Shown here piece after piece: positions 45,838 to 62,395 of a stretch of DNA of 64,000 bases. Position 1 is the stretch's first letter. Every line of letters begins with the position of its first letter. The position numbers and the translations under genes were made by a program. The stretch comes from Candidatus Saccharimonadota bacterium (GTDB lineage Bacteria > Patescibacteriota > Saccharimonadia > Saccharimonadales > UBA4665), in assembly GCA_037200465.1 (NCBI GenBank), contig JBBCFY010000001.1:18885-82884 (forward strand). Reading direction: 5' to 3'. Below the pieces are notes generated by a model. The model did not search any database, was not told where the DNA came from, and was given only the letters and a program-made list of their open reading frames with translations.

Positions 45838-46413
45838 ATGATAGCGACACTAACGGGCGTGGTAAGCGAGAAGCCGGGCGACATGGTCGTGCTGGACGTG
45901 CAGGGCGTGGGGTACGGGCTGCAGGTGACGGCCGAGGATTTCGGGCGGCTACCGACCGGCGAAAAGGCAAAGCTCTATGTGCACGAACATGTGCGCGAGC
46001 AGGCGTATGATCTATTCGGCTTCGTTAGTTTAGATACTAAACGATTATTTGAGCAATTGCTGGGCGTGAAAAATGTGGGTCCAAAAGTGGCGCTCGCGGT
46101 GTTGGATATCGGCAATGCGGCCGGTGTACGCGGGGCCATCGCTGCTGGCGATGTGAAACTGCTGCAGAGCGCCAAAGGCGTAGGCAAGCGTGCCGCCGAG
46201 CAGATAGTGGTCGAGCTGCGCGACAAAGTCGGTTTGAGCAGCACTGACACGGCCGAAGGTATCGTGTCCCGTCCCGGCATCAATACCCAGGACGAAGCCG
46301 CCGAAGCCCTCATCTCCCTCGGCTACTCCCCGCAGGACGCGACGCTGGCACTCAAAGATATCGATGCCGACTTACCGGTCGAGGAGCGTATCAAACTGGC
46401 CCTCAAGAACTAG
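45838..46413 (+). CDS. ruvA: Holliday junction branch migration complex subunit RuvA
   Basis: MIATLTGVV...VLDVQGVGYGL, HhH motifs GVKNVGPKVALAVL and KGVGKRAAEQIV, and C-terminal domain III. Confidence 0.93.
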   Translation: MIATLTGVVSEKPGDMVVLDVQGVGYGLQVTAEDFGRLPTGEKAKLYVHEHVREQAYDLFGFVSLDTKRLFEQLLGVKNVGPKVALAVLDIGNAAGVRGAIAAGDVKLLQSAKGVGKRAAEQIVVELRDKVGLSSTDTAEGIVSRPGINTQDEAAEALISLGYSPQDATLALKDIDADLPVEERIKLALKN

Positions 46414-47510
46414 CGTTTATGGTGGATGCGGACCAGCGCGAACTCGCGTTTTTCGCCGAGCCAGAAGCTAAGGGCCATCAGACCGATCACCAGGTAGAAC
46501 GGCCAGGCTAGCAGCAACCACTTGGTGGTGTTAGCCAGCCGTTTGGCGCCGCCCGGGTTGGTTGCCGTCCCGGCCGTACCGGTGCCTCCATTGCTGCTGG
46601 CTGTGTTCAGGAACGGAGCTTTACCGGACGAGTCGGTTATGAGCGCCGCCAGCTGGGTGACATGGGTTTGGCCCGCGTTATCCACTGACTTGATGACGAC
46701 CGGGTAGTACCCGGCAGCGGCGTACCGGTGCTGGATGCTGAACACCGGGTCTCCGGGAAAACTCAGCTTGGATGTCTTGCTATCACCCCAGTCAATTGTC
46801 ACCGTATAGGGAGGCGTACCGCCCTCCAGGTCCAGCTGCCAGGTGAAGGTCTGATGGGAGGGGAACGTTTGGAAATGAAAGTCACTGGTCAGCAGCAGCG
46901 GCGCGGCAACTGTCGGCGCAGCTGTATCAGCGGGCGCCGGCGCGGCCGTCGTGCCGGCGCTGCCGTGGGTCTCCGTGGCCTTGGCAGCTGGCGGTTGGTA
47001 CACGACTGTGATACTGGGCGTCGGCGGGCCTTGCAGATCAGTCTGGTTGTAGTCTTGGATGGTAAGCGTGTTATTGCCCGGATACAGCGAGGTCGTGATC
47101 CGGTAGGTACCGCTGCCGCTGCACCAGGCGACGCCATTGAAGGCACCGTTCAGGGTAAGTACTACATACGAAAGTGACGGACATGAGCCGGAGACATCTA
47201 CGGCCGAGGATGTCAAGACTGCTTTGTCGCTCGGCGCGTCAATAGTAGCTGCCGCCTGCAGCGCCGGCGCCTCGACCGTGGCCGAAATGAGGGTCGCCGC
47301 GATGACCTGGTACGTCCAACCGGCCATGAACACGCCGGCGCAGAGGAGGATGAAGGTGCTGAGCGGGTGCAGCAACAGGCGTTTGTGGAACGGATAGGCG
47401 CTGCGGCGGGCCTGCTTGGCAATGATCGCGGCCCGATGTTTTATGATGCGGGCGTGCAGTGTCTTTTTGCTGCGCTGGGCTGTTTTACGTTTGGGTTTTT
47501 TAGTGCTCAT
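46410..47510 (-). CDS. membrane protein with Ig-like and PKD-like extracytoplasmic domains (N- and C-terminal TMs)
   Basis: Basic N-terminus plus TM, the PKD-like signature GGTPPYTVTIDWGDS, and a C-terminal TM plus basic tail. 366 aa. Confidence 0.6.
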   Translation of the reverse strand: MSTKKPKRKTAQRSKKTLHARIIKHRAAIIAKQARRSAYPFHKRLLLHPLSTFILLCAGVFMAGWTYQVIAATLISATVEAPALQAAATIDAPSDKAVLTSSAVDVSGSCPSLSYVVLTLNGAFNGVAWCSGSGTYRITTSLYPGNNTLTIQDYNQTDLQGPPTPSITVVYQPPAAKATETHGSAGTTAAPAPADTAAPTVAAPLLLTSDFHFQTFPSHQTFTWQLDLEGGTPPYTVTIDWGDSKTSKLSFPGDPVFSIQHRYAAAGYYPVVIKSVDNAGQTHVTQLAALITDSSGKAPFLNTASSNGGTGTAGTATNPGGAKRLANTTKWLLLAWPFYLVIGLMALSFWLGEKREFALVRIHHKR

Positions 47511-47524
47511 GAAGCTTTGGTGGA

Positions 47525-47671
47525 TCAGGGGCCGTAGCCGCGCATGCCGTAACCGGGCAGCTCTGAAGGCGAGGAGTCGATACCCCGGGTGAAGGCCCCC
47601 AAGAACGCAGAAATGCCGGCAAACCCAACTACACCCGACAACAGCGCGAGCAAGAACTGCTTGCGCGTCAT
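47525..47671 (-). CDS. possible small membrane protein (48 aa)
   Basis: ATG 47671. MTRKQFLLALLSGVVGFAGISAFLGAF... ends 14 nt before the next gene start. Below the track cut-off, and the SD spacing is poor. Confidence 0.3.
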   Translation of the reverse strand: MTRKQFLLALLSGVVGFAGISAFLGAFTRGIDSSPSELPGYGMRGYGP

Positions 47672-47772
47672 CTCCTTTTCCAAAAGCTTTTCTATCTTGG
47701 CCAAAACAGTCTGCCTATTTATATTCGCTTACGCTTAGCTTAGGTGATGAATGCGAGGCTGTCAAGAGGTGG

Positions 47773-48393
47773 CTAATTGGCTACGGCCGTATACGTCACC
47801 TGAGTGCTGTAGGTGCCGCTGGCGACGGCAGTGTCAGCGCAGACTCCGTACCACACGCTGGTGACGACAGCCGGATCCGCAGCAGCGTCGGTGTCGGCAA
47901 GTGTGTCGGCTGTTGCGTTGCTGGCCGGCACGCCTGCGAACGAGAGTGAGCTGCTGCTGACATCTGTCTGGGCCGATGTGGGGCCGCTGCCGAACCCGCC
48001 CGCGCCGTCCACGCGGTAACCCCAATGATTGATCGCCAATGTCACGGGGCTGCTCAGCGTGCCGGCGGAAGCGGTGATGCCGTGCGCTCCCGACTTCAGA
48101 GAAGTATCGGTGCCGCTATCGGCCAGCGTGAGGCTGAAGCCGTTCGAGTTATCGGTGAATACCGACACCTGATCTTTCTGGATACTGCAGCTGCCGGTCG
48201 GGCTGGGCGTCAGGCTGATGCCGACACTGCTGCTGGTAGTGATGCTGACACTGCAGGACCCATACTGGCAGGCGCTGTACGTGCCGCTGCCGTACTGGAT
48301 GGCTGCTGCCCGCCAGGGTACCATAAGGAGCGCGAACAGGCCGGCTGCGACAGCCATACCTCCATATATCCGTGACGTGCGGCACCGGACCAC
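47773..48393 (-). CDS. secreted Thr/Ser/Gly-rich beta-type surface protein (WxL-domain-like or SCPU-like), paralog of 49335..49976
   Basis: Signal peptide present. The C-terminal half is shared with its paralog: WGYRVDG.GGFGSGPTS ... VWY ... A.GTY...VTYT..AN. Family assignment is tentative. Confidence 0.55.
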   Translation of the reverse strand: MVRCRTSRIYGGMAVAAGLFALLMVPWRAAAIQYGSGTYSACQYGSCSVSITTSSSVGISLTPSPTGSCSIQKDQVSVFTDNSNGFSLTLADSGTDTSLKSGAHGITASAGTLSSPVTLAINHWGYRVDGAGGFGSGPTSAQTDVSSSSLSFAGVPASNATADTLADTDAAADPAVVTSVWYGVCADTAVASGTYSTQVTYTAVAN

Positions 48394-48394
48394 T

Positions 48395-49318
48395 TCAAGT
48401 TCCCATATCTGGCGCCGGTGATCGCTTGTGTGCGCGCCGCCGCCGGCGCAGCAGACGGTACAGACCGAATAACAGTATCAGCAAGATGATGCCGGCAAAT
48501 ATGATCCTGACGGCGGGTGCCATCACTAGGACATATCTCGTGGGCAACTGCTCTTTGGCATCCACTATCGTGGCCGAACCGGTGACTTTGAAGAGTCCGA
48601 GCGGCGGTGCGTTGGCCCAGGTGGCCGGGATGCGCCGGATAGTCTCCGGCAGGATCTCTTTCTGAGTATTCAGCGTGAACTTGGCGCGGCCGAATACGTC
48701 GCTGACCACGATCTGCACGTTCGAGGCATAGTGCACGCCGCCGTCGTTTTCCAACCGTACGGTGCTGGTAAGCGGTTGCTTCTGCAGGAACGGCACCGAC
48801 CAGCTCGTCAATTTTCCGGCCTGTTTGACCGGCCCGGACACCGTGATGTAGAAGATCTCGCCGACCCGTTCATTGATAACTACGCCCTGGTTCGGGGGCG
48901 CCTTCGTTTCGGCGAATGCCACCGCGTAGTAACCGCCCGGCTGGGTGCCGGCCGGCACGCTCAGTGTATAGCCGACGGTCAGGGCTTGTCCCGGCTTGCT
49001 GTCGGCTCCGGCGGTGGTAAATTTCAGCCAGTCGGCCACGTTGGCATGCCCCGGCAGTGCCGTAAAATCGGGCGTGTATTCTTCGCCCTGTACCGAATAC
49101 GGCGCGGAGTAAATGGTGACGGAAAAGTCCTGCTCTCCCTGATTGATGATCTGGAACGTGCCGTGTATCGAAGCGCCGGGGTCGATGGTGGGCTTGGTGG
49201 TGGCAGGCGAGACGGTCAGTGTCTTGTCGCCCGGTGCAGCACCGGCAGTACTGCCGGTGCCAATGATTCCCAAAAACATGGCCGCCACCGCCAGCAGACA
49301 AACCGCCACTCGTCTCAT
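48395..49318 (-). CDS. DUF916/DUF3324-like cell-surface protein (CscA/WxL-interacting type)
   Basis: Signal peptide, two beta-rich domains (TFQIINQGEQDFSVTIYSAPY...), then a C-terminal TM plus RRRRRA tail. This is the architecture of WxL-cluster DUF916 proteins. Confidence 0.55.
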   Translation of the reverse strand: MRRVAVCLLAVAAMFLGIIGTGSTAGAAPGDKTLTVSPATTKPTIDPGASIHGTFQIINQGEQDFSVTIYSAPYSVQGEEYTPDFTALPGHANVADWLKFTTAGADSKPGQALTVGYTLSVPAGTQPGGYYAVAFAETKAPPNQGVVINERVGEIFYITVSGPVKQAGKLTSWSVPFLQKQPLTSTVRLENDGGVHYASNVQIVVSDVFGRAKFTLNTQKEILPETIRRIPATWANAPPLGLFKVTGSATIVDAKEQLPTRYVLVMAPAVRIIFAGIILLILLFGLYRLLRRRRRAHKRSPAPDMGT

Positions 49319-49334
49319 GGCTCTAGTATACCTG

Positions 49335-49976
49335 CTAGTTGGCGGTTACCGTATAGGTAACGTTGTTCGTGTAAGTGCCGGTTGCCTGGGTGGTATCGGC
49401 CGCGGTGGCATACCAGACGGTCGTCGTGTCGCTTGCTGCGACGCCGGAAGTAGTTTTGAGCGTATTCGGTGAGCCGGTGGCCGGTACGGCGGCGAACTTG
49501 ACACTGCCGATAGCCTGGCTGCTGGCGCCGCTGGTCGGGCCGCTGCCAAACCCGCCGATGCCGTCCACGCGGTAACCCCAGGTGTTGACCGACATGGCAA
49601 CCGGACTGGCCTGCGTGCCGGAGGAATGCGGAATGGTGTTGCCGCCGGAGACAAGGGAGGTTCCGGCGCCGGTTTCACCGAGCACCAGCGTATAGCCGGA
49701 GCTGTCATTGGTGCTGACAGTAACGGTGTCGCTGGCGATGGTTTGTGCGCCGGCACCGGTCGGAGCGACGTTGACATTCACCGTGCTATCGGTGGTAAAC
49801 AAGCTGATGACTGAGCCGATGGCAGAGCTGATGGTCGTGGACTGGGTGTCGGCCCCGGCTACGACGGGCGAGCCGACGACCAAGACCACTAGCAGACCGC
49901 TAGCTGCCCAATAACGCAAACGGCCGGTCGCTATGTGCCTGGGCAATCGAGTTGCGGACTGTTTAATCATATCCAA
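49335..49976 (-). CDS. secreted Thr/Ser/Gly-rich beta-type surface protein, paralog of 47773..48393
   Basis: N-terminal TM/signal, TWGYRVDGIGGFGSGPTSG, and the C-terminus GTYTNNVTYTVTAN. Confidence 0.55.
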   Translation of the reverse strand: MDMIKQSATRLPRHIATGRLRYWAASGLLVVLVVGSPVVAGADTQSTTISSAIGSVISLFTTDSTVNVNVAPTGAGAQTIASDTVTVSTNDSSGYTLVLGETGAGTSLVSGGNTIPHSSGTQASPVAMSVNTWGYRVDGIGGFGSGPTSGASSQAIGSVKFAAVPATGSPNTLKTTSGVAASDTTTVWYATAADTTQATGTYTNNVTYTVTAN

Positions 49977-50151
49977 TATATTGTTTATGCTTTACTTATG
50001 CTCATCATACCGCCTACCTGCGGTTATAGTCAAACATTCCTGAAGAGTGCCGATTGAGGCGCCGTAAGATTGTCTGACCGATGAAGGTTATGGTATTGTA
50101 AAAGTATTGCTGACAACAGCGCATGTTTTCGGGTAAATAAAGGGAAATATC

Positions 50152-50559
50152 ATGGCACGTCTGCCGGTAACGGGGGGAGATAACGATAGTTGGGGAAGCC
50201 TCCTCAACGATTTTTTGCAGCAGGCGCTCGATTCCGACGGTACGCTGCTCACCGGCTCCACGAACACCTACACTGCCTCTGCCAACACCAACCTGGCGAG
50301 CGGCAGCAAGCCCGGCTTGGTCCAGCTCGCCGGTGATTTGACGACACCGGTTACGGCACCGAAAGTTACCGGTCTGCAAGGGAAAGCAGTCGCCACGGAC
50401 ACGCCGCTCGACAACCAAGTATTGACCTGGCAGGCTTCGAGCAGCAGCTGGAAGCCGCTGACACCCAGTAGCGGCGGCGTTTTGGGTGATATCGATGGCG
50501 GCAGTTCCAGTTCGGTGTACGGCGGCGTCACGGCGATAGATTGCGGGGCATCCGTCTGA
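50152..50559 (+). CDS. phage minor-tail/tail-fibre N-terminal-like protein (135 aa)
   Basis: MARLPVTGGDNDSWGSLLNDFL... and GLVQLAGDL...P.VTGLQG...QVLTW...W.P resemble conserved N-terminal modules of actinophage tail proteins, recalled from memory. TGATG overlap with the next gene. Confidence 0.55.
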   Translation: MARLPVTGGDNDSWGSLLNDFLQQALDSDGTLLTGSTNTYTASANTNLASGSKPGLVQLAGDLTTPVTAPKVTGLQGKAVATDTPLDNQVLTWQASSSSWKPLTPSSGGVLGDIDGGSSSSVYGGVTAIDCGASV

Positions 50560-51593
50560 TGGCTGCGCAGATCCAATTCCGCCGCGACACTGCGGCCAAC
50601 TGGACATCCAACAACCCCACCTTAGCTCAAGGCGAAGTCGGGCTTGAGACGGACACGAATTCCTACAAGATAGGTGACGGCAGCACTGCCTGGAACAGTA
50701 TGGGCTACAGACAATTAGCCCCGGAAATCACGAGTTTGTTGCTGGACGGGCAGGGCAGTGATGCGTCTGCGCCTCGTTCCGGTGATCTGACGGTTTACGC
50801 AAAGGCCATTGCCGGCCGTATGATGCTGAAGCAAGTTGGCCCTTCGGGCTTAGCTACCGCGCTGCAGCCATTCCTGGCCCGCAACAAAGTCGCCATGTGG
50901 AACCCTTCGGGAAACAGCACCACCGTACCTGGAATCTTTGGCTACACGGCACCCACCACGAATGGGACGCTGACCTCGCGGAGTGTCGCGAGCAGTGGTC
51001 TCTTCGTCCGGATGCGCCGCATGAGCTATGTCTCGGCAGCTGGTGCCGGCTCACTCTGTTACCAGTATGTCGCAGTCGCGCAGGTTACTCTCGGTGACGG
51101 CGCGGGCAACGGCGGCTTTCATAAAATAACGCGTTTCGGCATCAGTGACGCGGCTGCGGTGACCGGCGCGCGGATGTTCTGCGGGGTCAGTTCGTCCACC
51201 AGCGCACCGACTAACGTCGAACCCTCCACGCTGACGAATTCCATCGGCATCGGCCATGGCGCTGCCGATACCACTATGCATATATATTGCGGCGGTTCGA
51301 GTGCCCAGACACCGATCGACCTGGGCAGCAACTTTCCCTGTAGCACGCGCAACACGGATATGTATGAACTTGCGCTGTTCGCACCGCCGAACAGTAACAA
51401 CACCGTCTACTACGAGGTAACCCGCCTGAACACCGGCAATGTGGCTACCGGTACTCTGACCGGTACCGCCGGGACCGATGTACCCGACCCCTCTACCCTG
51501 CTGTCTTATCAGCGTATCTGGCGGACCAACAACGCCACCGCCTTGGCGGTCGCCTACGACATCGTGTCAGACTACATAGAAACGGATAATTAG
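50559..51593 (+). CDS. tail-fibre-like protein with Mtd_N/hyaluronidase-N-type head motif (344 aa)
   Basis: The N-terminus IQFRRDTAANWTSNNPTLAQGEVGLETDTNSYKIGDGSTAWNSM matches the phage tail-fibre N-terminal repeat motif. The C-terminal approximately 270 aa are beta-rich and about 55% identical (by eye) to the next gene. Confidence 0.6.
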   Translation: MAAQIQFRRDTAANWTSNNPTLAQGEVGLETDTNSYKIGDGSTAWNSMGYRQLAPEITSLLLDGQGSDASAPRSGDLTVYAKAIAGRMMLKQVGPSGLATALQPFLARNKVAMWNPSGNSTTVPGIFGYTAPTTNGTLTSRSVASSGLFVRMRRMSYVSAAGAGSLCYQYVAVAQVTLGDGAGNGGFHKITRFGISDAAAVTGARMFCGVSSSTSAPTNVEPSTLTNSIGIGHGAADTTMHIYCGGSSAQTPIDLGSNFPCSTRNTDMYELALFAPPNSNNTVYYEVTRLNTGNVATGTLTGTAGTDVPDPSTLLSYQRIWRTNNATALAVAYDIVSDYIETDN

Positions 51594-51595
51594 CC

Positions 51596-52636
51596 GTGGC
51601 CGTACAGATAAAATGGCGGCGTGATACGGCGGCTAACTGGAGTACCAATAACCCTACCTTGGCTGCCGGCGAGCCGGGGTTCGAGACTGACACCGGCCAA
51701 TACAAGATAGGGGATGGGACCAGTGCCTGGAACAGTCTGGCACATGGCTCCTTCTCAGCAAACCCTTTGGCGGTCCTCTTTGCCGACCAGTCGAGCGGTA
51801 CCGATCCCGCCGCTCCGTCGGCCGGCAACCTGTTGCTGTACGGGAAGACGACCGCCGGGCGTATGATGCTGAAGTACATCGATCCTTCGGGCATGAACAC
51901 TGCCGTCCAGCCGTTCTTCGGCCGGACCAAGGCGGGATACTGGAATCCGCAGGGGAATTCGGCTACGTTGCCCGCCGTTTTCGGCTTCGCCAGCCCTACC
52001 GTCGTCGGCACCGCTACGGCAGCAAATGTCGCGACAACTAATCTGTTCACGCGGATGCGCCGGATCAGCTTCGTATCGGCAGCGACGGTCGGGTCACTCT
52101 GCGGCAGCCACCTGAACACAGCCGGAATTACCCTGGGCGATGGTTTTGGCAATGGGGGATTCTATAAGCTCATCCGGTTCGGATGCAGCGATCCTGCTAC
52201 TGTCGCTGGCGCGCGGATGTTCTGTGGGGTCAGCCAATCTGCCGGTACTCCTGCCAATGCCGAGCCGTCGACGTTTACGAACCTCATCGGTATCGGCCAT
52301 GGCGCCGCCGATACCAGCATGTCGATATATTATGGAGGTTCAACGGCCCAAGCTCCGATTGCGCTCGGTGCGAATTTCCCCGCTAACACATTGTCTGCCG
52401 ATGTCTATGAGCTTGCACTCTACGCGCCCCCCAACCAGTATGCTATCTATTATGAGGTCACGGTGCTCAATAGCGGTTATGTGGCCAGCGGTGTGATACA
52501 AGGCGACGGTGCCGGCACTGTCCTGCCGGTATCATCGATGCTTATGACTATCAGTCAGAACTGGCGGACGAACAATGCCACTGCTCTGGCGGTAAGCCTC
52601 GATATCATGAGCGAGTACATCGAAACCGACTATTAG
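51596..52636 (+). CDS. tail-fibre-like protein, tandem paralog of 50559..51593 (346 aa)
   Basis: IKWRRDTAANWSTNNPTLAAGEPGFETDTGQYKIGDGTSAWNSL, collinear with the preceding gene through to the shared ...WRTNNATALAV..DI.S.YIETD. C-terminus. Confidence 0.6.
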   Translation: MAVQIKWRRDTAANWSTNNPTLAAGEPGFETDTGQYKIGDGTSAWNSLAHGSFSANPLAVLFADQSSGTDPAAPSAGNLLLYGKTTAGRMMLKYIDPSGMNTAVQPFFGRTKAGYWNPQGNSATLPAVFGFASPTVVGTATAANVATTNLFTRMRRISFVSAATVGSLCGSHLNTAGITLGDGFGNGGFYKLIRFGCSDPATVAGARMFCGVSQSAGTPANAEPSTFTNLIGIGHGAADTSMSIYYGGSTAQAPIALGANFPANTLSADVYELALYAPPNQYAIYYEVTVLNSGYVASGVIQGDGAGTVLPVSSMLMTISQNWRTNNATALAVSLDIMSEYIETDY

Positions 52637-52694: not shown

Positions 52695-53729
52695 TTGATG
52701 ATCGAACGAATAGTTGGCGCGGTACCGGTAGATGATGACGAGGTCGAACAGGAGTTCGAGCTCAAGCTGCGGCCACATGATTTCGCCAACTATATCGGGC
52801 AGGATAGGCTGAAGCAGAATCTGCAATTGGCCATAACGGCGGCCAAGAAGCGCGGAGAAGCGCTGGACCATGTGCTGCTGTACGGGCCGCCGGGGCTCGG
52901 TAAGACCACCATGGCCAGCGTGATAGCGAACGAGATGGGCGCGCAGATCCGTATAACCTCCGGTCCGGCAATTGAACGGGCGGGAGACCTGGCCAGCCTG
53001 CTCACCAACCTGCAGGACGGCGATATCCTCTTTATAGATGAGATACACCGGCTGCACCGGACGGTTGAGGAGGTGCTCTACAGCGCCATGGAAGATTACA
53101 AACTGGATATCATGCTCGGCAAAGGGCCATCGGCCCGTAGCTTGCGGCTCGATTTACCCCAGTTTACGCTGATAGGGGCGACCACCCGCACCGGCGCCCT
53201 GGCCGCACCGCTGCGCGATCGCTTCGGCCACATTCACCGGCTGGAATTCTATACACCGGAACAGGTGCAGCAGATCATCGAGCGGGCGGCAAATATCCTA
53301 ACGATTAAGATAAATGGGGAAGCGGCACTGAAGCTGGCGGAGCGCAGCCGGCTGACGCCCCGTATCGCCAACCGCCTCTTGAAACGCGTCCGCGACTATG
53401 CCGATGTCAACGGCGACGGCATCATCGACCTGAACATTTCGACCAAGGCGCTCGAGCTGCTCGAGATAGACGAGCTGGGGCTGGACCCGGCCGACCGCAT
53501 GCTGCTGCACGCCATCATCGACAGTTACAACGGCGGTCCGGTCGGGGTTGAAACGCTGGCCGCCATCACCAGCGAAGAGCGCACCACCATCGAAGATTTC
53601 ATAGAGCCCTACCTGATGCAGATCGGTCTGCTGGAGCGCACGCCGCGCGGTCGCAAGGTGACGCACAAAACCTACAAGCACCTCGGCAAGCAGCCGCCGA
53701 AAGACAATCCGCAGACAAGCCTGGTATAA
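52695..53729 (+). CDS. ruvB: Holliday junction branch migration DNA helicase RuvB
   Basis: [12 protein letters not shown], Walker [10 protein letters not shown], Walker [10 protein letters not shown], and [18 protein letters not shown] at 52698 is also possible. Confidence 0.96.
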
Positions 53730-54559: not shown

Positions 54560-54877
54560 TTATTCCTGGAACGGATTGTTGCGAGCGCTTTGGAACAGTG
54601 ATTGTACGCTGACGCTGTTGTCCTGCAGGCTTTGGATCTTCTGGATGGTCGCCGGGTCGATGCGCGGCTGCGGCGTCGACTGGGCGGTCTCTTCGCTCGC
54701 GGACGCCGGCGCGTTGCTGTAGACGTTGATGCGCCACAGAATGTAGCCGTAGATGCCGGCGACTACCAGGAAGAACACGAACACTTTGTAGCCGCTGACC
54801 TTTTGCAGTGCACCTTTGGCCAGGGCCGGCAGGTCGCTTACGTTGAGCTGTTGTTTCGCGGCTTTCTTATCTTTCAT
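54560..54877 (-). CDS. small single-TM protein, last gene of the pilMNO operon (PilP-position)
   Basis: 105 aa with one TM (VFVFFLVVAGIYGYILW). 4-nt overlap with pilO. Confidence 0.5.
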   Translation of the reverse strand: MKDKKAAKQQLNVSDLPALAKGALQKVSGYKVFVFFLVVAGIYGYILWRINVYSNAPASASEETAQSTPQPRIDPATIQKIQSLQDNSVSVQSLFQSARNNPFQE

Positions 54878-55476
54878 GGCTTGATGAACTCGTTGATTAC
54901 CAGGGTGAAGGCGATGAGATTGGTGCTGGTCGCATCAGGCTGGATGGTGATGCTGCTGACCTGTGCGGTGCGGCGGTTCTGTTCGAGCTTGCTCAGGAAA
55001 TCCGTGAACTCGCCGTAAGGAACGCGTGCCGTCTGGTCCTGGCTGACGGTGATGGGCAGCTCGTAGACGCCGGTTATGCCCGGGACGGGCGTGAGCTGGG
55101 TGAGATTGGGGTTGTTATTGGCGCCGGGCGTGACCGTACCGAGCGTGGAGGCGGGGAAGGTGATGGACGACAGTTTGGATATGCCGCTCGAGGCAGCCAG
55201 ATTGACGATTTCGCGGACTGCTTCGGCCTGGTCCTTATCCTGGGGTACGATGGTCTCGGCGATGGTGTTCAGCTCGCCGTATTTGGTAATGTCTTTCTTG
55301 TTTTTGGCCAGCGTCGCCTGGGTCGTATCCACGATATCACTGTCGGCGCGCAGCTTGGACAGCTTGGCCGCTTGCGTGCTCAGTATCTTGTTGGCGCCAT
55401 AGGCGATGCCGAACAGGCCCACCGCGAGCAGCGTGAACACGCCTATCAGCACGAAGTACAATTGCTTGGATTTCAT
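54874..55476 (-). CDS. pilO: type IV pilus assembly protein PilO-like
   Basis: N-terminal TM, coiled coil and a ferredoxin-like C-terminus. Operon position after pilN, with a 4-nt overlap. Confidence 0.6.
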   Translation of the reverse strand: MKSKQLYFVLIGVFTLLAVGLFGIAYGANKILSTQAAKLSKLRADSDIVDTTQATLAKNKKDITKYGELNTIAETIVPQDKDQAEAVREIVNLAASSGISKLSSITFPASTLGTVTPGANNNPNLTQLTPVPGITGVYELPITVSQDQTARVPYGEFTDFLSKLEQNRRTAQVSSITIQPDATSTNLIAFTLVINEFIKP

Positions 55477-56072
55477 GGGCTGCTCCCGTTGTTCGTGAAC
55501 AGGAAGGGATTATCGGTGGCGAACAGTGCGCGGATGTCGGCGGTGCAGGGGTACTGGCTATTGCCGGTGGTGCCGCTGTTCAGGCAGTTGATACTGACGA
55601 TATCCGCCTCGGTGAATATCTGGTTCTTGGGGTCGGCCAGGTTCACCTGCAGCTGGGTGGCAGCGTTATAGTTAGCGGTCTGGGCGGTGATCTCTACCCC
55701 GCCCTGGGCCTGGGTAATCACCAGGTTGGTCAGGATGACATCACTTGGCGTGACGCTGGCCAGTTGCTTAAGCAGCTTCGAGAACAGGATTTCCTTGGAC
55801 AGTACCTGGACGACCAGTTTCAAGTTGTTAGAGATGGTGGTGACCTGCTTTTGCACGCCGGCCAGGTTCTGCGACTTCAGCTGGCTGTTGCTGTCGGCGA
55901 TCTGCTGGGTGGTAGTGTTGATGGATTGGTTCAAGTACAAGTAGCCGCCGCCGAGCAGCAGTGCGCCGCCGGCCAGGCAGAACGCGGCCGAGATGATCCA
56001 CCGGACGAGCATCCGGTTGCGCCGGGCGTATTTATAAGCTTGCTTGGTGTCGGGCGGCAGCAGATTGATCAT
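55473..56072 (-). CDS. pilN: type IV pilus assembly protein PilN
   Basis: The hallmark N-terminus MINLLPPDTKQ..., a TM and a coiled coil. The track ORF (to 56450) has a spurious R/S/P-rich N-terminal extension. Confidence 0.8.
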   Translation of the reverse strand: MINLLPPDTKQAYKYARRNRMLVRWIISAAFCLAGGALLLGGGYLYLNQSINTTTQQIADSNSQLKSQNLAGVQKQVTTISNNLKLVVQVLSKEILFSKLLKQLASVTPSDVILTNLVITQAQGGVEITAQTANYNAATQLQVNLADPKNQIFTEADIVSINCLNSGTTGNSQYPCTADIRALFATDNPFLFTNNGSSP

Positions 56073-56121
56073 GAGGCTTCGCCTCCTGACAGCATATTGA
56101 CTATCGCAGTATGCGTAAGAA

Positions 56122-57150
56122 TCATGCGAAGACTTCCTCCGGATCGATGGCTGCCAGCCCGGCGGCTGTGACGTACGACATGCGTTCGGTGAGGTTGAAC
56201 GGCTGTAAACGCCCGAAATCGATGTAGGAAGTGGGGTCGATGGAGCGGACGGCAAGGCGTAGGTTGCTAGTGAGGTATTCCGCCAGGCCCGGCATGTTGG
56301 CGCCGCCGCCGGCGATGGCAGCCTGCGATATCTTGCGGTTATCGGGCGCGTGTTCTTCGTAGTAACGGACGGTGCGCTTGATTTCCTTGAGGAGCAGACT
56401 GAGCAGCGGGTCGAGCGCCTTGGCGATCTGGGCCTGTTTCTTGCTGGCATTCAGGCCGTATTTGGCCTTGATGAGAGCCGCTTCCTTATCGGTGACGCCC
56501 AGCTCGCGGGCGATGGCGGCCGTGAACAGCTCACTGCCGCAGGCTACCGTGCCACTGACCACCGGACCGTTGTCGTAGACGGTGATGTCGGCACTGTCAC
56601 TGCCGAAATCGATCAGCAGCGAGGCGACGTCGCTCTGCGTATCGCGGGCGAACAGATGTGCGCCGGCACCGCTGGAAGTCTGCAGTATGACGGCTTCGAG
56701 GCCCAGCAGGCGGGCCAGCGTGATGTAGGAGTCGACGATACGTTTGGGCATGGCCACGATGAATACGCTGGTCTTGTCGCTGCCGGTGCCGACCCGGGTG
56801 TAATCGACGTACAGGTCCTCGAGCGCGGCCGGGATGTATTGCTCCGCTTCGTTTTGGACCGCTTCGGCCAGATCCTTGTCGTTCAGCGACGGTACCGCGA
56901 GCGAGCGCGTAAATGCCCGGGCCATGGGCAGCGACAGCGCGACACGTTTGGTGGTGATATCACCGACCAGATGGTGTTTGAACAGCTCCTGTACGGCGGC
57001 CGCCAAGACTTCGGGTTTTTCTATGACGCCGTCGACGACCGCGCCCGGATCGAAAGTGGTTTCGCCGTAACCGACAAGTTTGAGGCTGTGTTTGACAGGC
57101 CGGAGCTGCAGGACACGGATCTTGCCGTGGCCGATATCGAGCCCGAACAT
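56122..57150 (-). CDS. pilM: type IV pilus assembly ATPase-fold protein PilM
   Basis: MFGLDIGHGKIRVLQL... and an actin-like fold throughout. gagga lies 7 nt upstream of ATG 57150. An alternative ATG at 57186 lies inside element B. Confidence 0.85.
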   Translation of the reverse strand: MFGLDIGHGKIRVLQLRPVKHSLKLVGYGETTFDPGAVVDGVIEKPEVLAAAVQELFKHHLVGDITTKRVALSLPMARAFTRSLAVPSLNDKDLAEAVQNEAEQYIPAALEDLYVDYTRVGTGSDKTSVFIVAMPKRIVDSYITLARLLGLEAVILQTSSGAGAHLFARDTQSDVASLLIDFGSDSADITVYDNGPVVSGTVACGSELFTAAIARELGVTDKEAALIKAKYGLNASKKQAQIAKALDPLLSLLLKEIKRTVRYYEEHAPDNRKISQAAIAGGGANMPGLAEYLTSNLRLAVRSIDPTSYIDFGRLQPFNLTERMSYVTAAGLAAIDPEEVFA

Positions 57151-57176
57151 AGGCTTATCCTCAAAAAACAGTATAG

Positions 57177-57343
57177 GAGAACTCATCTCACACTTCCCAT
57201 CCAGCTTCACGCCGTGCCGAGGGCACTGCACCGCAGTTTTGTTCGTCAGCGTACCCAAGAGTACGCTTCCTCGCAAGAACTACGCCGCAGCACTCCTCGG
57301 CACGGCCTTCACTTAACAGATGTGAAGTATGAAATGAGTTCTT
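57177..57343. repeat. about 167-nt imperfect palindromic element B, related to element A, in the pilM leader
   Basis: Outer arms are 57179-57196 and 57324-57341 (16/18, both mismatches G-U on the minus strand). Inner arms ccgtgccgagg/cctcggcacgg are perfect (57212-22 and 57295-305). The apical hairpin is agcgtac-ccaaga-gtacgct (57248-67). Confidence 0.7.
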
Positions 57344-57437
57344 CGGTTGCGTCACGTGGTGCCCATCTTAAGCATAACTAGTATCTTGTGAATATAATAG
57401 CACGACTGGGGGTCCGGAAGCCACGAAATGCCTCCCT

Positions 57438-57463
57438 CAGTATACCGCTTATGCGGTATACTG
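57438..57463. promoter_or_regulatory. perfect 11-bp-arm palindrome 6 nt upstream of the pilin-like operon start codon
   Basis: cagtataccgc-ttat-gcggtatactg. TATAAT at 57393-98 lies upstream, so the palindrome would be in the 5' UTR or act as an operator. Confidence 0.45.
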
Positions 57464-57469
57464 TAGCTA

Positions 57470-59074
57470 ATGTACGGACAGAGGGCGGGCCAGTCTGAGA
57501 CACGGGTTCGGAGGGTTGCTGATGCGGCCGGATTCACGCTGATCGAGCTGGTGGTGAGCATGGTGGTGATATCCATCTTGGTAGTCAGCTTGTTCGGACT
57601 GTTCATCACCCTGGTGCATAGCGCCACCATCGCGAAGCAGCGGGCCGTGGCGCTCACCCTAGCCAACAATCAGATGGAGTATCTGAAATCGCTGCCCTAT
57701 GACAGCCTGATCGTCATCGGCGGCTCGATCGTCGGTACCGGTGTGGTGCAGCCGTCGGTGACGCAGACGGTCAACAATGCGAAATACACGGTGAAGACCG
57801 GCATCACCTATGTAGACGATGCCTATGATAACTGCGGCAACATCTACAGCACTGCCGCTCAGAAGGTTCAATATTGCCGCGGCGCTACGACTGCGACGCC
57901 GACGACCGATACCAACCCGGATGATTACAAAGATGCCAATGTCAGCGTCTATAACGCCGGGGGCACTAAGCTGGCGAATGTCGATACACAGATAGCCGCG
58001 CGCGTCTCCGAAACGGCCAGCAACACCGGCGCGTTCGTTATAACGGTGGTAGACGGCACCGGGACACCGATTTCCGGAGCGACGGTAACGGTCGTGAACA
58101 ATGTCGTCAACCCGCATGTCAACGCTTCGGATACGACCGACGAAAACGGCATCGCCATCATCTACGCCGCTACGCCGGACGCCAATAACGACTATGTGAT
58201 TACTGCCAGCATGAGCGGGTATTCCACCTTAAGTACTATCGCCGTCTCGGGTTCGCTGCAGCCGACCTATCCGAACCAGAAGGTCATCGCCCAGCAAGCC
58301 TCGAATCTGACCATGAAACTGTACCCGATGGTTGCGAACAGTCTGGTGGTGCAGACGACGGACACGGCAGGCAATCCGCTCGCCAATGTCAAGGTCTATG
58401 CCAAGGGCGGTTACAAGAAATTTACGTCGCTCACGGACTATGGTTACTACTACGATAATTACTATTCGAACTACAATAGCGGCACCGTCAGCGACAACCG
58501 GTTGGCGACCGATTCGGGCGGCCTGGGTGCGCTATCGAATCTGGTCCCGGCGAACAGTTACATATTTTGTAATAGCGATAATACGGCTTCCGCGAACACC
58601 AATTGTGCCATCGGATCCACCAAGTACTATTTGGCAGCGGCCGTTCCCTACGGCGGTGTCAATTCGCTGCAGCCGATTACCGTACCCATCAATGACCCGA
58701 CCAATCCGCCAAGCGCGGCCTATACCTATGGCGGCAACCAGTATGTCCAAAAAGTCCAGTTGATGCTGACCACCAGTTCTACTTTCCCGCGCGTCTACAC
58801 CATCAATCCCTACCAGCTCAGTCTGAGCGGCGGCGGCCTGGGCAGCGTGCTGATAACGCTCACCGGCTACAACCTGAGCTCTGCCACTGCTAAGCTGACA
58901 GAGGGAAGCAATACCTATACCGGAACCGGCTGCAGCAGCACTACCACCCAGCTCAAGTGTAGCTTCAATTTGTCGTCCATCGCTGTCGGCACCGCCCAGT
59001 TGGCCGTAACGAACAGTGCCGGAACGCTCACGCTGCCGACGACGCCGCAAGGAGGCCTCAATGTCGTTCCATAA
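57470..59074 (+). CDS. large prepilin-type protein (type IV pilin-like adhesin, 534 aa)
   Basis: Prepilin cleavage/methylation motif AAGFTLIELVVSMVVISIL, a CarboxypepD_reg-like segment (VVDGTGTPISGATVTVVN), and a C-terminal IPT/TIG-like domain. Confidence 0.8.
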   Translation: MYGQRAGQSETRVRRVADAAGFTLIELVVSMVVISILVVSLFGLFITLVHSATIAKQRAVALTLANNQMEYLKSLPYDSLIVIGGSIVGTGVVQPSVTQTVNNAKYTVKTGITYVDDAYDNCGNIYSTAAQKVQYCRGATTATPTTDTNPDDYKDANVSVYNAGGTKLANVDTQIAARVSETASNTGAFVITVVDGTGTPISGATVTVVNNVVNPHVNASDTTDENGIAIIYAATPDANNDYVITASMSGYSTLSTIAVSGSLQPTYPNQKVIAQQASNLTMKLYPMVANSLVVQTTDTAGNPLANVKVYAKGGYKKFTSLTDYGYYYDNYYSNYNSGTVSDNRLATDSGGLGALSNLVPANSYIFCNSDNTASANTNCAIGSTKYYLAAAVPYGGVNSLQPITVPINDPTNPPSAAYTYGGNQYVQKVQLMLTTSSTFPRVYTINPYQLSLSGGGLGSVLITLTGYNLSSATAKLTEGSNTYTGTGCSSTTTQLKCSFNLSSIAVGTAQLAVTNSAGTLTLPTTPQGGLNVVP

Positions 59075-59648
59075 GCAGTCGCAGGATGGTTTCAGCGTGA
59101 TTGAGCTGATGATCGCCTTGGCCCTGGCGGTGCTTATCAGCATCATGTTCTTCACGCTGTTCAAAACCAGTTTCTTGCAGTATCTGAATATCCAGCAAGA
59201 CGCCAGCACCGCCACGACGCTGGCTGGCCAGGAATCACGGGTGTCCACGGTGCTGCGCGGCGCTACCAGCGTGGTGTCTGCTTCGGATAATGATCTGGTG
59301 ATTTATTCATATTTTTACCCGAGCGATACGTATGTGTCGCTGCTGCACTACTATGTTTCTAGCGGTCAGCTGCTGGCCGACCTGACACCCATGAGCGCCA
59401 ACCCGCCGACCGGTACACCGCTTACTGCCAATCTGCGCACCTACACCATCATCCCGAATTTCTACCAAGCTGCCGGTACGCCGACGTTCGTGTATCTGGA
59501 CAGCAGTAACGCCGCCCTTCCGACACCGGTGACGGACCTGAACGCCATCAAGGCCATCCAAGTGAACCTGGCTGCTAAAGCGTCGAACGGCGGTAACCAG
59601 TCGATGACCCTGCAAGTGTCCCTAAGGAACTTCAAGACGAACTTATGA
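59061..59648 (+). CDS. prepilin-type minor pilin (195 aa)
   Basis: SD aaggagg. MSFHKQSQDGFSVIELMIALALAVLI (G/F cleavage motif). 14-nt overlap with the upstream gene. Confidence 0.8.
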   Translation: MSFHKQSQDGFSVIELMIALALAVLISIMFFTLFKTSFLQYLNIQQDASTATTLAGQESRVSTVLRGATSVVSASDNDLVIYSYFYPSDTYVSLLHYYVSSGQLLADLTPMSANPPTGTPLTANLRTYTIIPNFYQAAGTPTFVYLDSSNAALPTPVTDLNAIKAIQVNLAAKASNGGNQSMTLQVSLRNFKTNL

Positions 59649-61234
59649 TACGCAACCTTATGAAACGGATTCGGGAAGACGAAACGGGCTTCGTACTGCC
59701 CGGGCTGATCGCTTTCATGCTGGCCATGTCCATCATCGGCACAGCGACCATCACTATCATCTTGACCAACTTTGAAGTGGTGGGTAACAACGTTCGCAGC
59801 CAGCAAGCCTTCAATATCGCCGAGGCCGGCGTCAACTACTATCTATGGCATCTGAGCCACAATGCCGGTGACTACAAAGACGGGCAGAGTACGCCCACCA
59901 CGCCCGATCCGACGCTGGGCTACGGGCCGTACGTGCATAATTATGTCGATAATAACGATGCTACCACTGGCACGTACACGCTGTGGATCAAGCCTCAGGG
60001 CAGCGGGAGCACGCTGGTGACGGTACGCTCTATCGGCAAGGTCAATGGTACCACGGCTACCAGGACGGTGCAGGCGCAGGTCGGCGCGGCCTCGTTTGCC
60101 AGCTATGGCCTACTTGGGAATACTGAGTTCTGGTTCGGCTCCGATGAGACCGCCAACGGGCCGGTGTTCAGCAACGTGGGCGTGCACATGGATGGTACGA
60201 ACACCGACACGGTGGCGTCCGCCAACGCCACCTATACGCCGCAGAGCCAGTACGGCGGCGACGGCAATAGCCATCCGGGTGTTTGGTGCAGCACTACCGT
60301 CACGAGTCCGAATTGCAACACGCGCAACAAAACCAGCTGGCTGTACCCGAAGACCAGCGTTGACTTCAACCAGGTCAGTACCAGCTTGTGTACCATGAAG
60401 AAGACCGCGTTCGGTGACTACAGCACCACGAGCTCGTTGGCCAGCCAGAGCAACGCCTGCAGCCAGGTGCCCTCCACCCGCACGAACGCCTATATACCCG
60501 AAACCAGTACCGGTTTCAGCTCGACCACGGGCTATCTGATCCAGCTCAATACGAACGGCACCTATAATTTGTCTAAGGTCACGGGCGAGAACGACAAGGC
60601 TGCCAGCTATTCGAGCGCGCTCACGACCACATCGATCGCTACCAACATCGCGCTGCCCCCTTCCGGCGTGATATTCGTGGAGGATAACGTGTGGGTGCGT
60701 ACCAACCCGACCTTCCATGGCCGGGTGACCATTGCCTCCGGCCGCCTGGCGTCCAGCAGCCAGACCACGGACATAACCATCGCCGACCAGTTGCTCTATA
60801 CGCTCAAGGACGGCAGTGACGCCATCGGCTTAGTTTCTGAAGGTGATGTCGACCTGGCCCCGTACGCGCCTAGCAGTGCCAGCGGCAGCTTTAACTTTGA
60901 AGTCGACGCGGCAGCACTGGCCCAGACAGGCTCAGTCACCTGGCCGCTTTACTACGCCGGGACCAATACCTGTACCAAGGGCTGGGTCAACAGTACGCAG
61001 AAGCTTATTTTCTACGGCTCGGTGGCGAGCGACCTGGACTGGACGTGGAACTACCAGAGCAGCGGCTCGTGCGGCAATGCCGTCAAAGATACCTCCAGCG
61101 GCTACTATATATCGGGCATAGAGCACACCGAGACCGATTACGATTACAATATGCTTTATTCGCCGCCGCCCAGCTACCCTGTTACCGGTACCTACAACAT
61201 CCTGAACTGGCGCGAAGTCCTGCTGAAACCTTAG
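59645..61234 (+). CDS. PilX-like pilus-associated protein (529 aa)
   Basis: Hydrophobic N-terminus GFVLPGLIAFMLAMSIIGTATITIIL and QQAFNIAEAGVNYYLWHL, typical of PilX_N. The C-terminal region is large and beta-rich. Confidence 0.65.
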   Translation: MIRNLMKRIREDETGFVLPGLIAFMLAMSIIGTATITIILTNFEVVGNNVRSQQAFNIAEAGVNYYLWHLSHNAGDYKDGQSTPTTPDPTLGYGPYVHNYVDNNDATTGTYTLWIKPQGSGSTLVTVRSIGKVNGTTATRTVQAQVGAASFASYGLLGNTEFWFGSDETANGPVFSNVGVHMDGTNTDTVASANATYTPQSQYGGDGNSHPGVWCSTTVTSPNCNTRNKTSWLYPKTSVDFNQVSTSLCTMKKTAFGDYSTTSSLASQSNACSQVPSTRTNAYIPETSTGFSSTTGYLIQLNTNGTYNLSKVTGENDKAASYSSALTTTSIATNIALPPSGVIFVEDNVWVRTNPTFHGRVTIASGRLASSSQTTDITIADQLLYTLKDGSDAIGLVSEGDVDLAPYAPSSASGSFNFEVDAAALAQTGSVTWPLYYAGTNTCTKGWVNSTQKLIFYGSVASDLDWTWNYQSSGSCGNAVKDTSSGYYISGIEHTETDYDYNMLYSPPPSYPVTGTYNILNWREVLLKP

Positions 61235-61273
61235 TCTGCTAGAGTCGCAGTGGTTTTTGGTATAGTAGAGCAT

Positions 61274-61783: not shown

Positions 61784-61808
61784 TCATGTAGGGACTCTGT
61801 GCAAACAA

Positions 61809-61838
61809 AAAGCCGGAGCGTCTGAAGGTTCCGGCTTT
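61809..61838. terminator. bidirectional terminator between convergent genes
   Basis: aaagccgga-N12-tccggcttt, with a flanking A-run and T-run. Confidence 0.65.
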
Positions 61839-61853
61839 TAGTAGGACCAGAAA

Positions 61854-62315: not shown

Positions 62316-62347
62316 ATAACCTTCTTAAGCTTTATGGTCAGGTATAC

Positions 62348-62380: not shown

Positions 62381-62395
62381 GCGGTGTCTTTGTTC

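Follow-up and report, generated by a model that had tools for sequence, protein, structure and literature searches.

Phage tail-fibre-like genes located beside a Pam-type pilus operon in a Saccharimonadia genome

How CPR/Patescibacteria episymbionts choose and bind their bacterial hosts is a central open question. The Pam pilus, a surface filament restricted to CPR/Saccharimonadia, was identified only in 2026 in Candidatus Mycosynbacter amalyticus (bioRxiv 10.64898/2026.03.03.709456, June 2026; NCBIfam NF058578, NF058579, NF058581), and no adhesin or specificity determinant has been assigned to it. The system includes the pilins PamA (55 kDa, which carries a post-translational modification) and PamB (39 kDa), both with an N-terminal beta-sandwich domain, two chaperones with a PapD-like fold and a C-terminal TM helix, and PamR. 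This preprint states in one sentence that a tail fibre-like protein consistently co-localises with pam operons, but the protein is not analysed there and the supplement holds no accession for it.

Other described systems are also relevant to the locus studied here. In Bordetella phage BPP-1 Mtd and in HylP-type tail fibres (Pfam Mtd_N, PF18454), a constant N-terminal attachment module carries a variable C-terminal binding domain, and in branched or adaptor-based phage systems short adaptor proteins dock exchangeable tail fibres or tailspikes. The WxL/WxLIP (DUF916-DUF3324) surface clusters of Firmicutes (PMC10599100; PDB 9i1y, 9i25) encode small secreted beta-rich proteins together with WxLIP proteins in a monoderm envelope, and no phage-fibre genes are described for them. 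In Tat hitch-hiker export, as in E. coli PaoABC (PMC4273604) or heterodimeric Tat substrates (PMC10924467), signal-less folded partners are exported together with a protein that carries a Tat-type signal.

Gene content of the locus and phage-fibre modules

The window analysed is a stretch of 64,000 nucleotides from a Candidatus Saccharimonadota bacterium (contig JBBCFY010000001.1). An original prediction based on the sequence alone had proposed that three co-oriented, tightly coupled genes in the window are orphan phage tail-fibre-like genes, and this observation of three coupled fibre-like genes has been confirmed. The features of the locus are the following:

46410-47510 (-), PamR-like anchor protein (366 aa) with N- and C-terminal hydrophobic segments
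47525-47704 (-), small conserved protein (59 aa) that looks like a Tat signal or a Tat-associated protein
47773-48393 (-), small Pam-type pilin (206 aa) with a signal peptide, corresponding to the C-terminal Ig-like pilin domain only
48395-49318 (-), membrane-anchored chaperone-like protein with two Ig domains (307 aa), resembling PamC/D, WxLIP and PapD
49335-49976 (-), small Pam-type pilin (213 aa) with a signal peptide and a hydrophobic N-terminus
49977-50151, divergent control region
50152-50559 (+), g1, short fibre 'adaptor' (135 aa; role inferred) with a conserved N-terminal region of about 100 aa and a variable C-terminal tail
50559-51593 (+), g2, receptor-binding-protein-like gene (344 aa) with an Mtd_N cap, a linker and a ConA/legume-lectin-like domain
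51596-52636 (+), g3, paralog of g2 (346 aa) with the same architecture

The ATG of g2 overlaps the TGA stop of g1 (TGATG), and g3 starts with GTG 2 nt after the g2 stop. The proteins g2 and g3, predicted to be tandem paralogs with roughly 55% identity by eye, were found to be 59% identical over their full length (E 2e-145). Both match Pfam Mtd_N above the gathering score (58.8 and 63.4 bits, respectively, against 26.3), with residues 5-43 covering the whole 37-position model, and both also match many PHROG tail-fibre families at the N-terminus and phrog_13925 across the C-terminal ~280 aa (E 1.9e-32 and 2.6e-24). A divergent centre between conserved ends, which had been claimed as a sign of diversified binding specificities, was not confirmed, because the most variable part is the linker at residues ~50-70 and the lectin-like domain is conserved throughout.

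Profile and structure searches had been named in advance as the analyses that could place these proteins in a non-phage family or reveal a lectin-type tip, and they supported the phage-fibre identity. The AF2 model of g3 (pLDDT 84.8) gave legume lectins as Foldseek matches in the PDB (E ~1e-7, TM 0.55-0.62) and Caudovirales and giant-virus fibre proteins in BFVD (E 7e-34). The g3 protein is 56% identical to the C-terminus of Rhodobacter phage RcKemmy gp22, which lies between the host-specificity protein and the holin, and full-length homologs at 55-62% identity occur on IMG/VR phage contigs with no pam genes. For the L018/L042 phage contig (L numbers designate the loci compared in this work), a PHROG scan of the neighbouring genes gave only one strong family of unknown function and one weak tail hit; its viral status rests mainly on the IMG/VR classification and gene layout.

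The stretch LAGDL...VTGLQG...QVLTW of g1 is homologous to a single copy of the DUF5907-type fibre repeat. The g1 protein alone scored 15 bits against the PF19264 gathering score of 27, whereas the g1 family profile hit 6197 proteins through this segment, and positions ~49-120 recur up to 34 times in long proteins; sampled hits are Pfam DUF5907 proteins and PHROG tail-fibre or minor-tail families. The segment is thus a homologous single repeat that is below threshold on its own, which leaves formal membership of g1 in PF19264 undecided.

The proteins of the minus-strand arm resemble those of the Pam system, although the pilins, the chaperone and the PamR-like protein all score below NCBIfam cut-offs, so that this is a divergent Pam-like system, and formation of a filament by it has not been shown by anyone. 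The PamR-like protein matched CPR_pilus_PamR (NF058578) over positions 43-294 of 297 with E 7.6e-51; this score (172.7 bits) is below the equivalog cut-off of 300, so that the protein is a clear homolog but not an equivalog and its assignment as PamR proper is not settled by this search. The 206-aa and 213-aa pilins carry Sec signals, as in the Pam system; they hit CPR_Pam_pilin_C with E 1.7e-3 and 6.7e-4, respectively, and a profile-profile alignment (hhalign) of the small-pilin family to canonical Pam pilins covered the whole C-terminal domain (94% probability, E 1.2e-7). These pilins, of ~21 kDa, align only to that domain and lack the N-terminal beta-sandwich, whereas two-domain pilins of 340-385 aa are present in loci L014, L020, L023, L024 and L120. 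A sequence search for PamA/PamB-like chains with the window pilin and a canonical pilin found nothing relevant in the PDB copy searched, which does not contain the PamA/PamB structures.

The locus also differs from the described Pam system in having one chaperone rather than two and a divergently transcribed fibre arm. The AF2 model of the 307-aa protein (pLDDT 93.1) shows a signal helix, two Ig-like beta domains and a C-terminal TM helix at 268-298, and its best Foldseek matches are E. faecium WxLIP 9i1y/9i25 (E 2e-11), followed by the chaperone-usher chaperones CsuC, CfaA, FimC, PapD and EcpB (E 1e-9 to 1e-6). WxLIP has the same layout of signal peptide, two Ig-like domains and C-terminal TM helix, and both proteins sit next to small secreted beta-rich proteins in a monoderm envelope. 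It is 30% identical (E 4.5e-35) to the chaperone of a canonical pam operon in L020. The label 'WxL/DUF916-like' given to this cluster in the original prediction is therefore structurally apt, but the resemblance is structural only: no match to the Pfam WxL or WxLIP families was found at sequence level, none of 26 small pilins hit WxL, only 3 of 59 chaperone homologs touched WxLIP_PGBD (E ~0.09), and no WxL motifs or LPXTG partner were seen.

Conservation of the cassette and exchange of the fibre arm

A survey of co-occurrence with the neighbouring surface genes, which had been suggested beforehand as a check, revealed that the three genes are not orphans. In all 23 informative Saccharimonadia loci, g1 plus receptor-binding gene(s) are paired with pilin, chaperone and PamR homologs, in spite of different genomic flanks, although synteny across related genomes is partly inherited and these are not 23 independent events. 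In L020 the partner is a bona fide pam operon, with pilins at 150 and 105 bits against a cut-off of 55, and relatives of the window's fibre genes also sit directly beside canonical pam operons in L023 and L024. In L014 the fibre genes lie between two pam chaperone genes in one co-oriented block. The type IV pilus genes located downstream are adjacent only in this genome and its close relatives, and they are not part of the conserved unit.

The C-terminal tail type of g1 matches the N-domain type of the next gene in 22 of 23 loci, and the pair is exchanged as a unit, which is the pattern expected of adaptor-RBP docking. The loci L122 and L123, from two close relatives, share the ruvA|cassette|ruvB site of the window (ruvB 86-89% identical) but carry a different g1 tail and a single 455-aa receptor-binding protein. 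Other loci keep Mtd_N and change the C-terminus (707 aa or 220 aa), and L120 and L030 carry at the same position large tailspike-like proteins with collagen repeats and beta-helices.

The genes are under purifying selection, with dN/dS of ~0.17 for g1 and ~0.06 for g2, which is the most conserved gene of the cassette (70-82% identical to orthologs). In the divergent control region, the plus-strand promoter for g1-g3 has a -35 TTGTCT at 50070-50075, an 18-nt spacer and an extended -10 TGgTATTGT at 50091-50099, and the TTG, TG and TA...T positions are invariant in an alignment of 11 loci. A consensus scan also found a minus-strand promoter-like site at 50033-50004.

The small protein of 59 aa, with the layout KIEKLLEKEM-TRKQFL-hydrophobic stretch-PGYGMRGYGP, was found by motif in 19 cassette loci and by HMM in 3 more, where it is placed 4 nt upstream of g1 (a position recorded for L014, L017, L020 and L024). 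All 8 small proteins tested hit NF038009, 'twin-arginine translocation system-associated protein', over nearly the whole model (E 5e-8 to 3e-12), but with 26-46 bits against a cut-off of 100. TAT_signal matches (TIGR01409) are borderline and reach the cut-off only for the R-R variant of L118 (16.8 against 16.7), most genomes having R-K (R-Q in two loci) and the window protein T-R-K-Q-F-L, so that these scores do not decide whether it is a Tat substrate or Tat-associated protein. tatC is nearby in 7 of 20 loci, with tatAC as a recurrent neighbour, and lies inside the pam arm in L002, whereas no tatAC lies in the 64-kb window.

Possible function and alternative explanations

The interpretation offered in the original prediction, domesticated phage receptor-binding proteins acting as adhesins or as the targeting part of an undescribed surface system, is partly supported: the receptor-binding-like identity and the association with a surface system fit the evidence, but the partner operon belongs to the already described Pam pilus type. 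The explanation favoured here, with moderate confidence, is that the trio is the phage-derived fibre arm of a conserved two-armed cassette of soil and freshwater Saccharimonadia, whose other arm (46410-49976) encodes a reduced Pam-type filament probably assembled by donor-strand exchange, a mode of assembly that was not examined here. In this view, g2 and g3 are domesticated phage receptor-binding proteins, and g1 is an adaptor whose conserved N-terminal part would dock, there being no baseplate or tail to dock to, to a constant partner, as yet unidentified and proposed to be a component of a bacterial filament or envelope, and whose variable tail would hold the N-terminal domain of the receptor-binding protein encoded next to it. 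The most likely role is glycan recognition outside the cell, working with the Pam-type filament to bind the bacterial host, with a receptor-binding arm that can be exchanged as in phages.

The homology, folds, synteny, co-variation, module swapping, purifying selection and conserved promoter are results of this analysis, whereas the extracellular location, glycan binding, physical link to the filament and Tat dependence are inferred. Export had been named as a point to be checked, and none of g1-g3 was found to have a signal peptide or TM segment, so that an extracellular role needs an unproven export route. The most plausible one, on weaker grounds, is Tat hitch-hiking of a pre-folded complex on the small Tat-signal-like protein, whose would-be passenger part is only ~20 residues; this was not assayed. 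The high conservation of g2 is unlike a receptor-binding protein in an arms race, and complexes of the fibre proteins with pilins, chaperone or PamR were not modelled.

A more far-reaching possibility, considered rather unlikely but not excluded, is that the g1 adaptor and the lectin-type (or tailspike-type) proteins would be folded in the cytoplasm, exported through TatAC on a dedicated ~60-aa Tat-signal protein and displayed on or beside the Pam-type pilus as exchangeable host-recognition heads, so that swapping the fibre arm would re-target the parasite to a new bacterial host, as in phage host-range evolution. The three genes are good candidates for how these tiny parasitic bacteria recognise their hosts, being phage-type lectin heads with an adaptor that turn over as modules at a fixed chromosomal site. 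If confirmed, this would be a new way for bacteria to reuse phage receptor-binding proteins without any tail or contractile machine, and it would allow the host range of uncultured CPR bacteria to be predicted from sequence. The g1 adaptor, the module swapping and the Tat link are not treated in the Pam preprint, and whether the fibre-like protein of M. amalyticus is a g2/g3 homolog was not tested directly. Literature searches for Saccharibacteria with tail fibre or Mtd, the M. amalyticus cryo-ET paper and the Southlakia Tn-seq paper gave no mention of these proteins.

Among the alternatives, a decaying prophage or tailocin remnant without present function is very improbable and largely refuted. 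All three proteins are built from phage fibre modules and have close homologs on phage contigs, but the reading frames are intact in more than 20 genomes under purifying selection, the promoter and the synteny with the pam-type arm are conserved in different chromosomal contexts, and no att-like flanking repeats or other mobile-element borders were found. The presence of the rest of a prophage had been stated beforehand as a condition that would overturn the prediction; the immediate flanks are ruvA and ruvB, and precomputed Pfam for +/-10 kb here, where only cellular genes appear, and in 10 related loci showed no capsid, terminase, portal, tube, sheath, baseplate, tape-measure, lysis or integrase genes, the remaining ~45 kb of the window being judged from the ORF list only. 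An independent surface or released weapon or adhesin, for example a fibre-only, bacteriocin-like binder of host or competitor cells that shares regulation with the filament without attaching to it, is unlikely, although less so than the other alternatives. It is favoured by the divergent transcription of both arms from a shared intergenic region, by the large tailspike-like proteins of L120 and L030, which could act alone as depolymerases, and by an arrangement relative to pam genes that varies between divergent and co-oriented. However, adjacency is kept through many rearrangements (23 of 23 loci), and the co-oriented block of L014 is hard to explain without a functional tie.

A cytoplasmic role, in which the proteins would act on the filament system from inside, for example as lectin-like or ConA-fold enzymes or chaperones that handle glycosylated pilin precursors or cell-wall glycan intermediates, is also unlikely. 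The lack of signal peptides, the glycoside hydrolases and lyases that share the ConA-like fold, the modification of PamA and the conservation of g2, with many invariant charged residues, are compatible with it. On the other hand, every homologous context outside Saccharimonadia is a virion fibre, the Mtd_N cap, the DUF5907 repeat, the collagen-repeat or beta-helix alternatives and the adaptor/RBP co-variation are hallmarks of extracellular fibres rather than of cytoplasmic enzymes, and there is a link to a Tat-associated small protein. A defence or decoy module, with RBP-like proteins that would occupy, mask or mimic the filament to block phages using it as a receptor in a superinfection-exclusion-like role, seems more doubtful still. 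Pili are common phage receptors, the RBPs are tightly linked to a pilus operon and the receptor-binding arm turns over in situ, but the export problem is the same, the strong conservation of g2 argues against an arms-race target, no Saccharimonadia phage carrying these modules was identified, and no defence-system signature was examined or seen.

Diversification of the DGR/Mtd type was rejected, since the predicted C-terminal fold is ConA/legume-lectin-like rather than the C-type-lectin fold of Mtd or a hyaluronidase beta-helix, there is no hypervariable patch, the only repeats in the region are those of the g2/g3 paralogy itself, with no template repeat, and no reverse transcriptase-like ORF was found in the window, where a single YVDD motif (a weak motif test) lies in a pilin-like ORF. 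The genes are moreover chromosomal and not part of a virion gene set. The FRRD at the N-terminus of g2 and g3 was also considered as a Tat signal, but no hydrophobic region follows it, and it is the conserved Mtd_N motif also present in phage proteins.

The three fibre-like genes

The three open reading frames that had been assigned in the original prediction to a phage tail-fibre-like trio were found exactly at the positions proposed, and the observation was thus confirmed. They are the following:
g1, 50152-50559, 135 aa.
g2, 50559-51593, 344 aa, with its ATG overlapping the stop codon of g1 as TGATG.
g3, 51596-52636, 346 aa, with a GTG start codon located 2 nt after the stop codon of g2.

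The g2 and g3 proteins are 59% identical over their full length and both carry the Pfam Mtd_N domain above the gathering score, whereas their C-terminal ~280 residues match phrog_13925, a phage family of unknown function. Composition was uniform across the region. The additional claim of a divergent centre between conserved ends does not hold; the variable part of g2 and g3 is the linker at residues ~50-70. The cluster R155/R156/K191/R194/H235/Y271 is conserved.

An AlphaFold2 model of g3 was built from 74 homologs (pLDDT 84.8) and displayed a small N-terminal cap, a poorly ordered linker and a large beta-sandwich. A structural comparison of this kind had been proposed beforehand to test the phage-fibre reading. 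Against the PDB, the predicted sandwich matched legume lectins and other ConA-like proteins (E ~1e-7, TM 0.55-0.62 normalised by target), and against predicted viral structures (BFVD) it matched uncharacterised Caudovirales proteins (E 7e-34, 37% identity) and collagen-repeat fibre proteins of giant viruses. Giant-virus proteins of Fadolivirus (A0A7D3R2D6) and Indivirus (A0A1V0SCQ2), some of them with collagen triple-helix repeats, share the same C-terminal lectin-like domain at up to 41% identity.

A tblastn search revealed that residues 81-345 are 56% identical to the C-terminus of gp22 of the Rhodobacter phage RcKemmy, which is encoded between the GTA-type host-specificity protein and the holin, the tail-fibre position. 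Full-length homologs with Mtd_N plus ConA-like architecture, 55-62% identical to g2 and g3, were found in IMG/VR viral contigs, including a 49.9-kb contig binned with a Chitinophagales MAG (IMGVR_UViG_2830693646_000005, loci L018 and L042, which are the same) and the contig of locus L037, which also has an adjacent 130-aa gene that consists only of Mtd_N. None of these contigs contains pam or g1 genes. This level of identity between Saccharimonadia genes and phages of unrelated hosts suggests fairly recent exchange.

The g1 protein gave no Pfam or PHROG hit on its own. However, a profile constructed from its 43 homologs has revealed that positions ~49-120 are a single copy of a repeat found up to 34 times in very long proteins, and the hits sampled were Pfam DUF5907 proteins and PHROG tail-fibre or minor-tail families. 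All three proteins are therefore built from phage fibre modules, as had been predicted.

The partner arm and its genomic setting

A survey of co-occurrence with neighbouring surface genes, which had also been put forward as a test, showed that these genes are not orphans, contrary to the original prediction. In three Saccharibacteria genomes of ~1 Mb, the surroundings of the homologs contained the same unit, g1 plus one or two Mtd_N genes transcribed divergently from three or four secreted proteins of ~200, ~300 and ~200 aa, although the genomic flanks were unrelated. A scan of GTDB species representatives followed by a blastp census extended this picture, since every locus with enough flanking DNA had pilin-like, chaperone-like and usually PamR-like genes next to the fibre genes. 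When the chaperone was used as the starting point the same result was obtained in 3 of 3 cases, and three more loci were found by starting from g1. In total, the pairing was observed in 23 of 23 informative loci, the uninformative ones being those that end within ~0.4 kb of g1 or are phage contigs.

The 366-aa protein of the partner arm is named by NCBIfam a relative of PamR (E 7.6e-51, below the equivalog cut-off), and the two ~210-aa proteins gave weak hits to the Pam pilin C-terminal domain. A profile-profile comparison confirmed that these small pilins correspond to the C-terminal Ig-like domain of canonical Pam pilins (94% probability, E 1.2e-7). The 307-aa chaperone-like protein (48395-49318, minus strand) was modelled with high confidence (pLDDT 93.1) as a signal peptide, two Ig-like domains and a C-terminal TM helix, and its best PDB matches were the E. 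faecium WxL-interacting protein (WxLIP, DUF916-DUF3324), followed by the chaperone-usher chaperones CsuC, CfaA, FimC, PapD and EcpB. This fits the description of PamC/PamD in the preprint that defined the Pam pili of the cultivable Ca. Mycosynbacter amalyticus (bioRxiv 10.64898/2026.03.03.709456). The earlier impression of a 'WxL/DUF916-like' neighbour was thus vindicated at the level of the predicted fold, but there is no sequence-level membership in those families. The order of the structural matches hints that WxL clusters and Pam pili are related monoderm versions of one assembly principle, while the sections of the preprint that were examined compare only with Pap/Fim.

In more distant relatives (loci L014, L020, L023 and L024) the fibre genes are co-oriented with canonical pam operons, whose two-domain pilins score well above the NCBIfam cut-off. 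The preprint states in one sentence that 'a tail fibre-like protein' is a central, consistently co-localised node of pam neighbourhoods, but that protein is not analysed there.

The whole ~6.2-kb cassette is located between ruvA (45838-46413) and ruvB (52695-53729) in this genome and in two close relatives (loci L122 and L123), but at unrelated sites in other genomes. Neither flanking repeats nor an integrase were found.

Co-variation, exchange of heads and the question of export

The first ~100 residues of g1 are conserved, but its C-terminal tail is present in two types. Tails of the form '...DGGxxSxxYGGxxxIDxGxx' are followed by a gene that starts with Mtd_N, whereas tails ending in '...AxxSMRI' are followed by a ~455-aa protein with a different N-terminal domain and the same lectin-like C-terminus. 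This correspondence holds in 22 of 23 loci, which is the pattern expected if the g1 tail docks the N-domain of the receptor-binding protein.

Loci L122 and L123 (ruvA 81-86% and ruvB 86-89% identical to those of the window) carry the cassette at the same ruvA|ruvB site, but with the other g1 tail and a single 455-aa head, and similarity to the g1 of the window ends at about residue 108. Elsewhere, the Mtd_N cap is kept and the C-terminus is replaced (707 aa or 220 aa). In locus L120 (L120:1-6503) the position is occupied by proteins of 1062 and 919 aa with GPT collagen-like repeats and a beta-helix tailspike-like part, and locus L024 carries extra fibre-like genes (L024:11125-14109), a second g1-like gene (234 aa) plus proteins of 143 and 549 aa.

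These genes are in use, as indicated by dN/dS values of ~0.06 for g2 and ~0.17 for g1 where dS could be estimated, and by a -35/extended -10 promoter upstream of g1 that is conserved in 11 loci. A neighbour-joining tree, although rough, separated g2-type and g3-type sequences into old paralog groups, with phage sequences interleaved with single-copy Saccharimonadia sequences.

Unlike all four proteins of the pam arm, g1, g2 and g3 have no hydrophobic N-terminus. A small gene encoding a 59-aa protein is conserved in the cassette, with the layout 'KxExLLxxEM-TR(K/R)QF(L/I)', a hydrophobic stretch of ~20 residues and then 'PGYGxRxYGP'. The eight versions tested all hit NCBIfam NF038009, 'twin-arginine translocation system-associated protein' (E 5e-8 to 3e-12, below the cut-off), and the R-R variants touch the TAT_signal models. 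This gene lies in the pam arm in window-type loci, but its homolog is located directly upstream of g1 in canonical-type loci, at 4 nt and on the same strand in L014, L017, L020 and L024. The positions are the following:
Window, 47525-47704, minus strand, Tat-signal-like small protein.
L014:8163-8444, homolog upstream of g1.
L017:5421-5660, homolog upstream of g1.
L020:8799-9038, homolog upstream of g1.
L024:9237-9473, homolog upstream of g1.

In addition, tatC, usually with tatA, was found next to or inside the cassette, within the neighbourhood examined, in 7 of 20 related loci and in several different relative positions, although no tatAC genes lie in the 64-kb window:
L002:5018-6074, inside the pam arm.
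L004:11551-12673.
L009:11125-12139.
L014:4262-5673.
L017:4113-4913, divergent from the small gene.
L020:7455-8486, divergent from the small gene.
L024:7855-9098, divergent from the small gene.

The Tat system exports folded proteins and can also carry signal-less partners bound to a signal-bearing subunit (PMC4273604, PMC10924467). A pre-folded fibre complex riding on this small protein would solve the export problem, but this remains an inference, since the motif is mostly R-K, tatAC is absent from the window and no interaction was modelled. The Tat route is held with low to moderate confidence.

Interpretation and neighbouring features

It is concluded that the trio is the phage-derived fibre arm of a Pam-type surface-filament cassette, and that it most likely supplies exchangeable glycan-binding heads for host contact. 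The original interpretation was supported in part. Cassette membership and phage origin are held with high confidence, while the extracellular adhesin role, which is inferred, is held with moderate confidence. A dead prophage remnant is essentially excluded, but a cytoplasmic role, an anti-phage decoy role, or an independent weapon or adhesin that is merely co-regulated all remain possible.

The partner system and the bare fact of co-localisation were already in the 2026 preprint, so the finding is not categorically new. As far as the searchable literature shows, the reduced small-pilin form of the operon, the adaptor/head co-variation, the in-situ head swapping, the predicted lectin fold with close phage relatives and the Tat-associated small protein have not been described.

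Other features of the neighbourhood are the following:
49965-49992, an AT-rich imperfect palindrome that overlaps the start codon of the 213-aa pilin gene and may be an operator in the divergent control region.
54560-63845, a type IV pilus cluster with pilM/N/O-like genes, large minor-pilin-like ORFs and two tandem near-identical 153-aa pilin genes (61854-62315 and 62396-62857), adjacent to the cassette only in this genome and close relatives (L123).
L001:12064-12480, L004:11029-11472 and L118:2649-3020, a secreted protein of ~125-147 aa, conserved among these loci and encoded just downstream of the second receptor-binding gene on the opposite strand, with no counterpart in the window.
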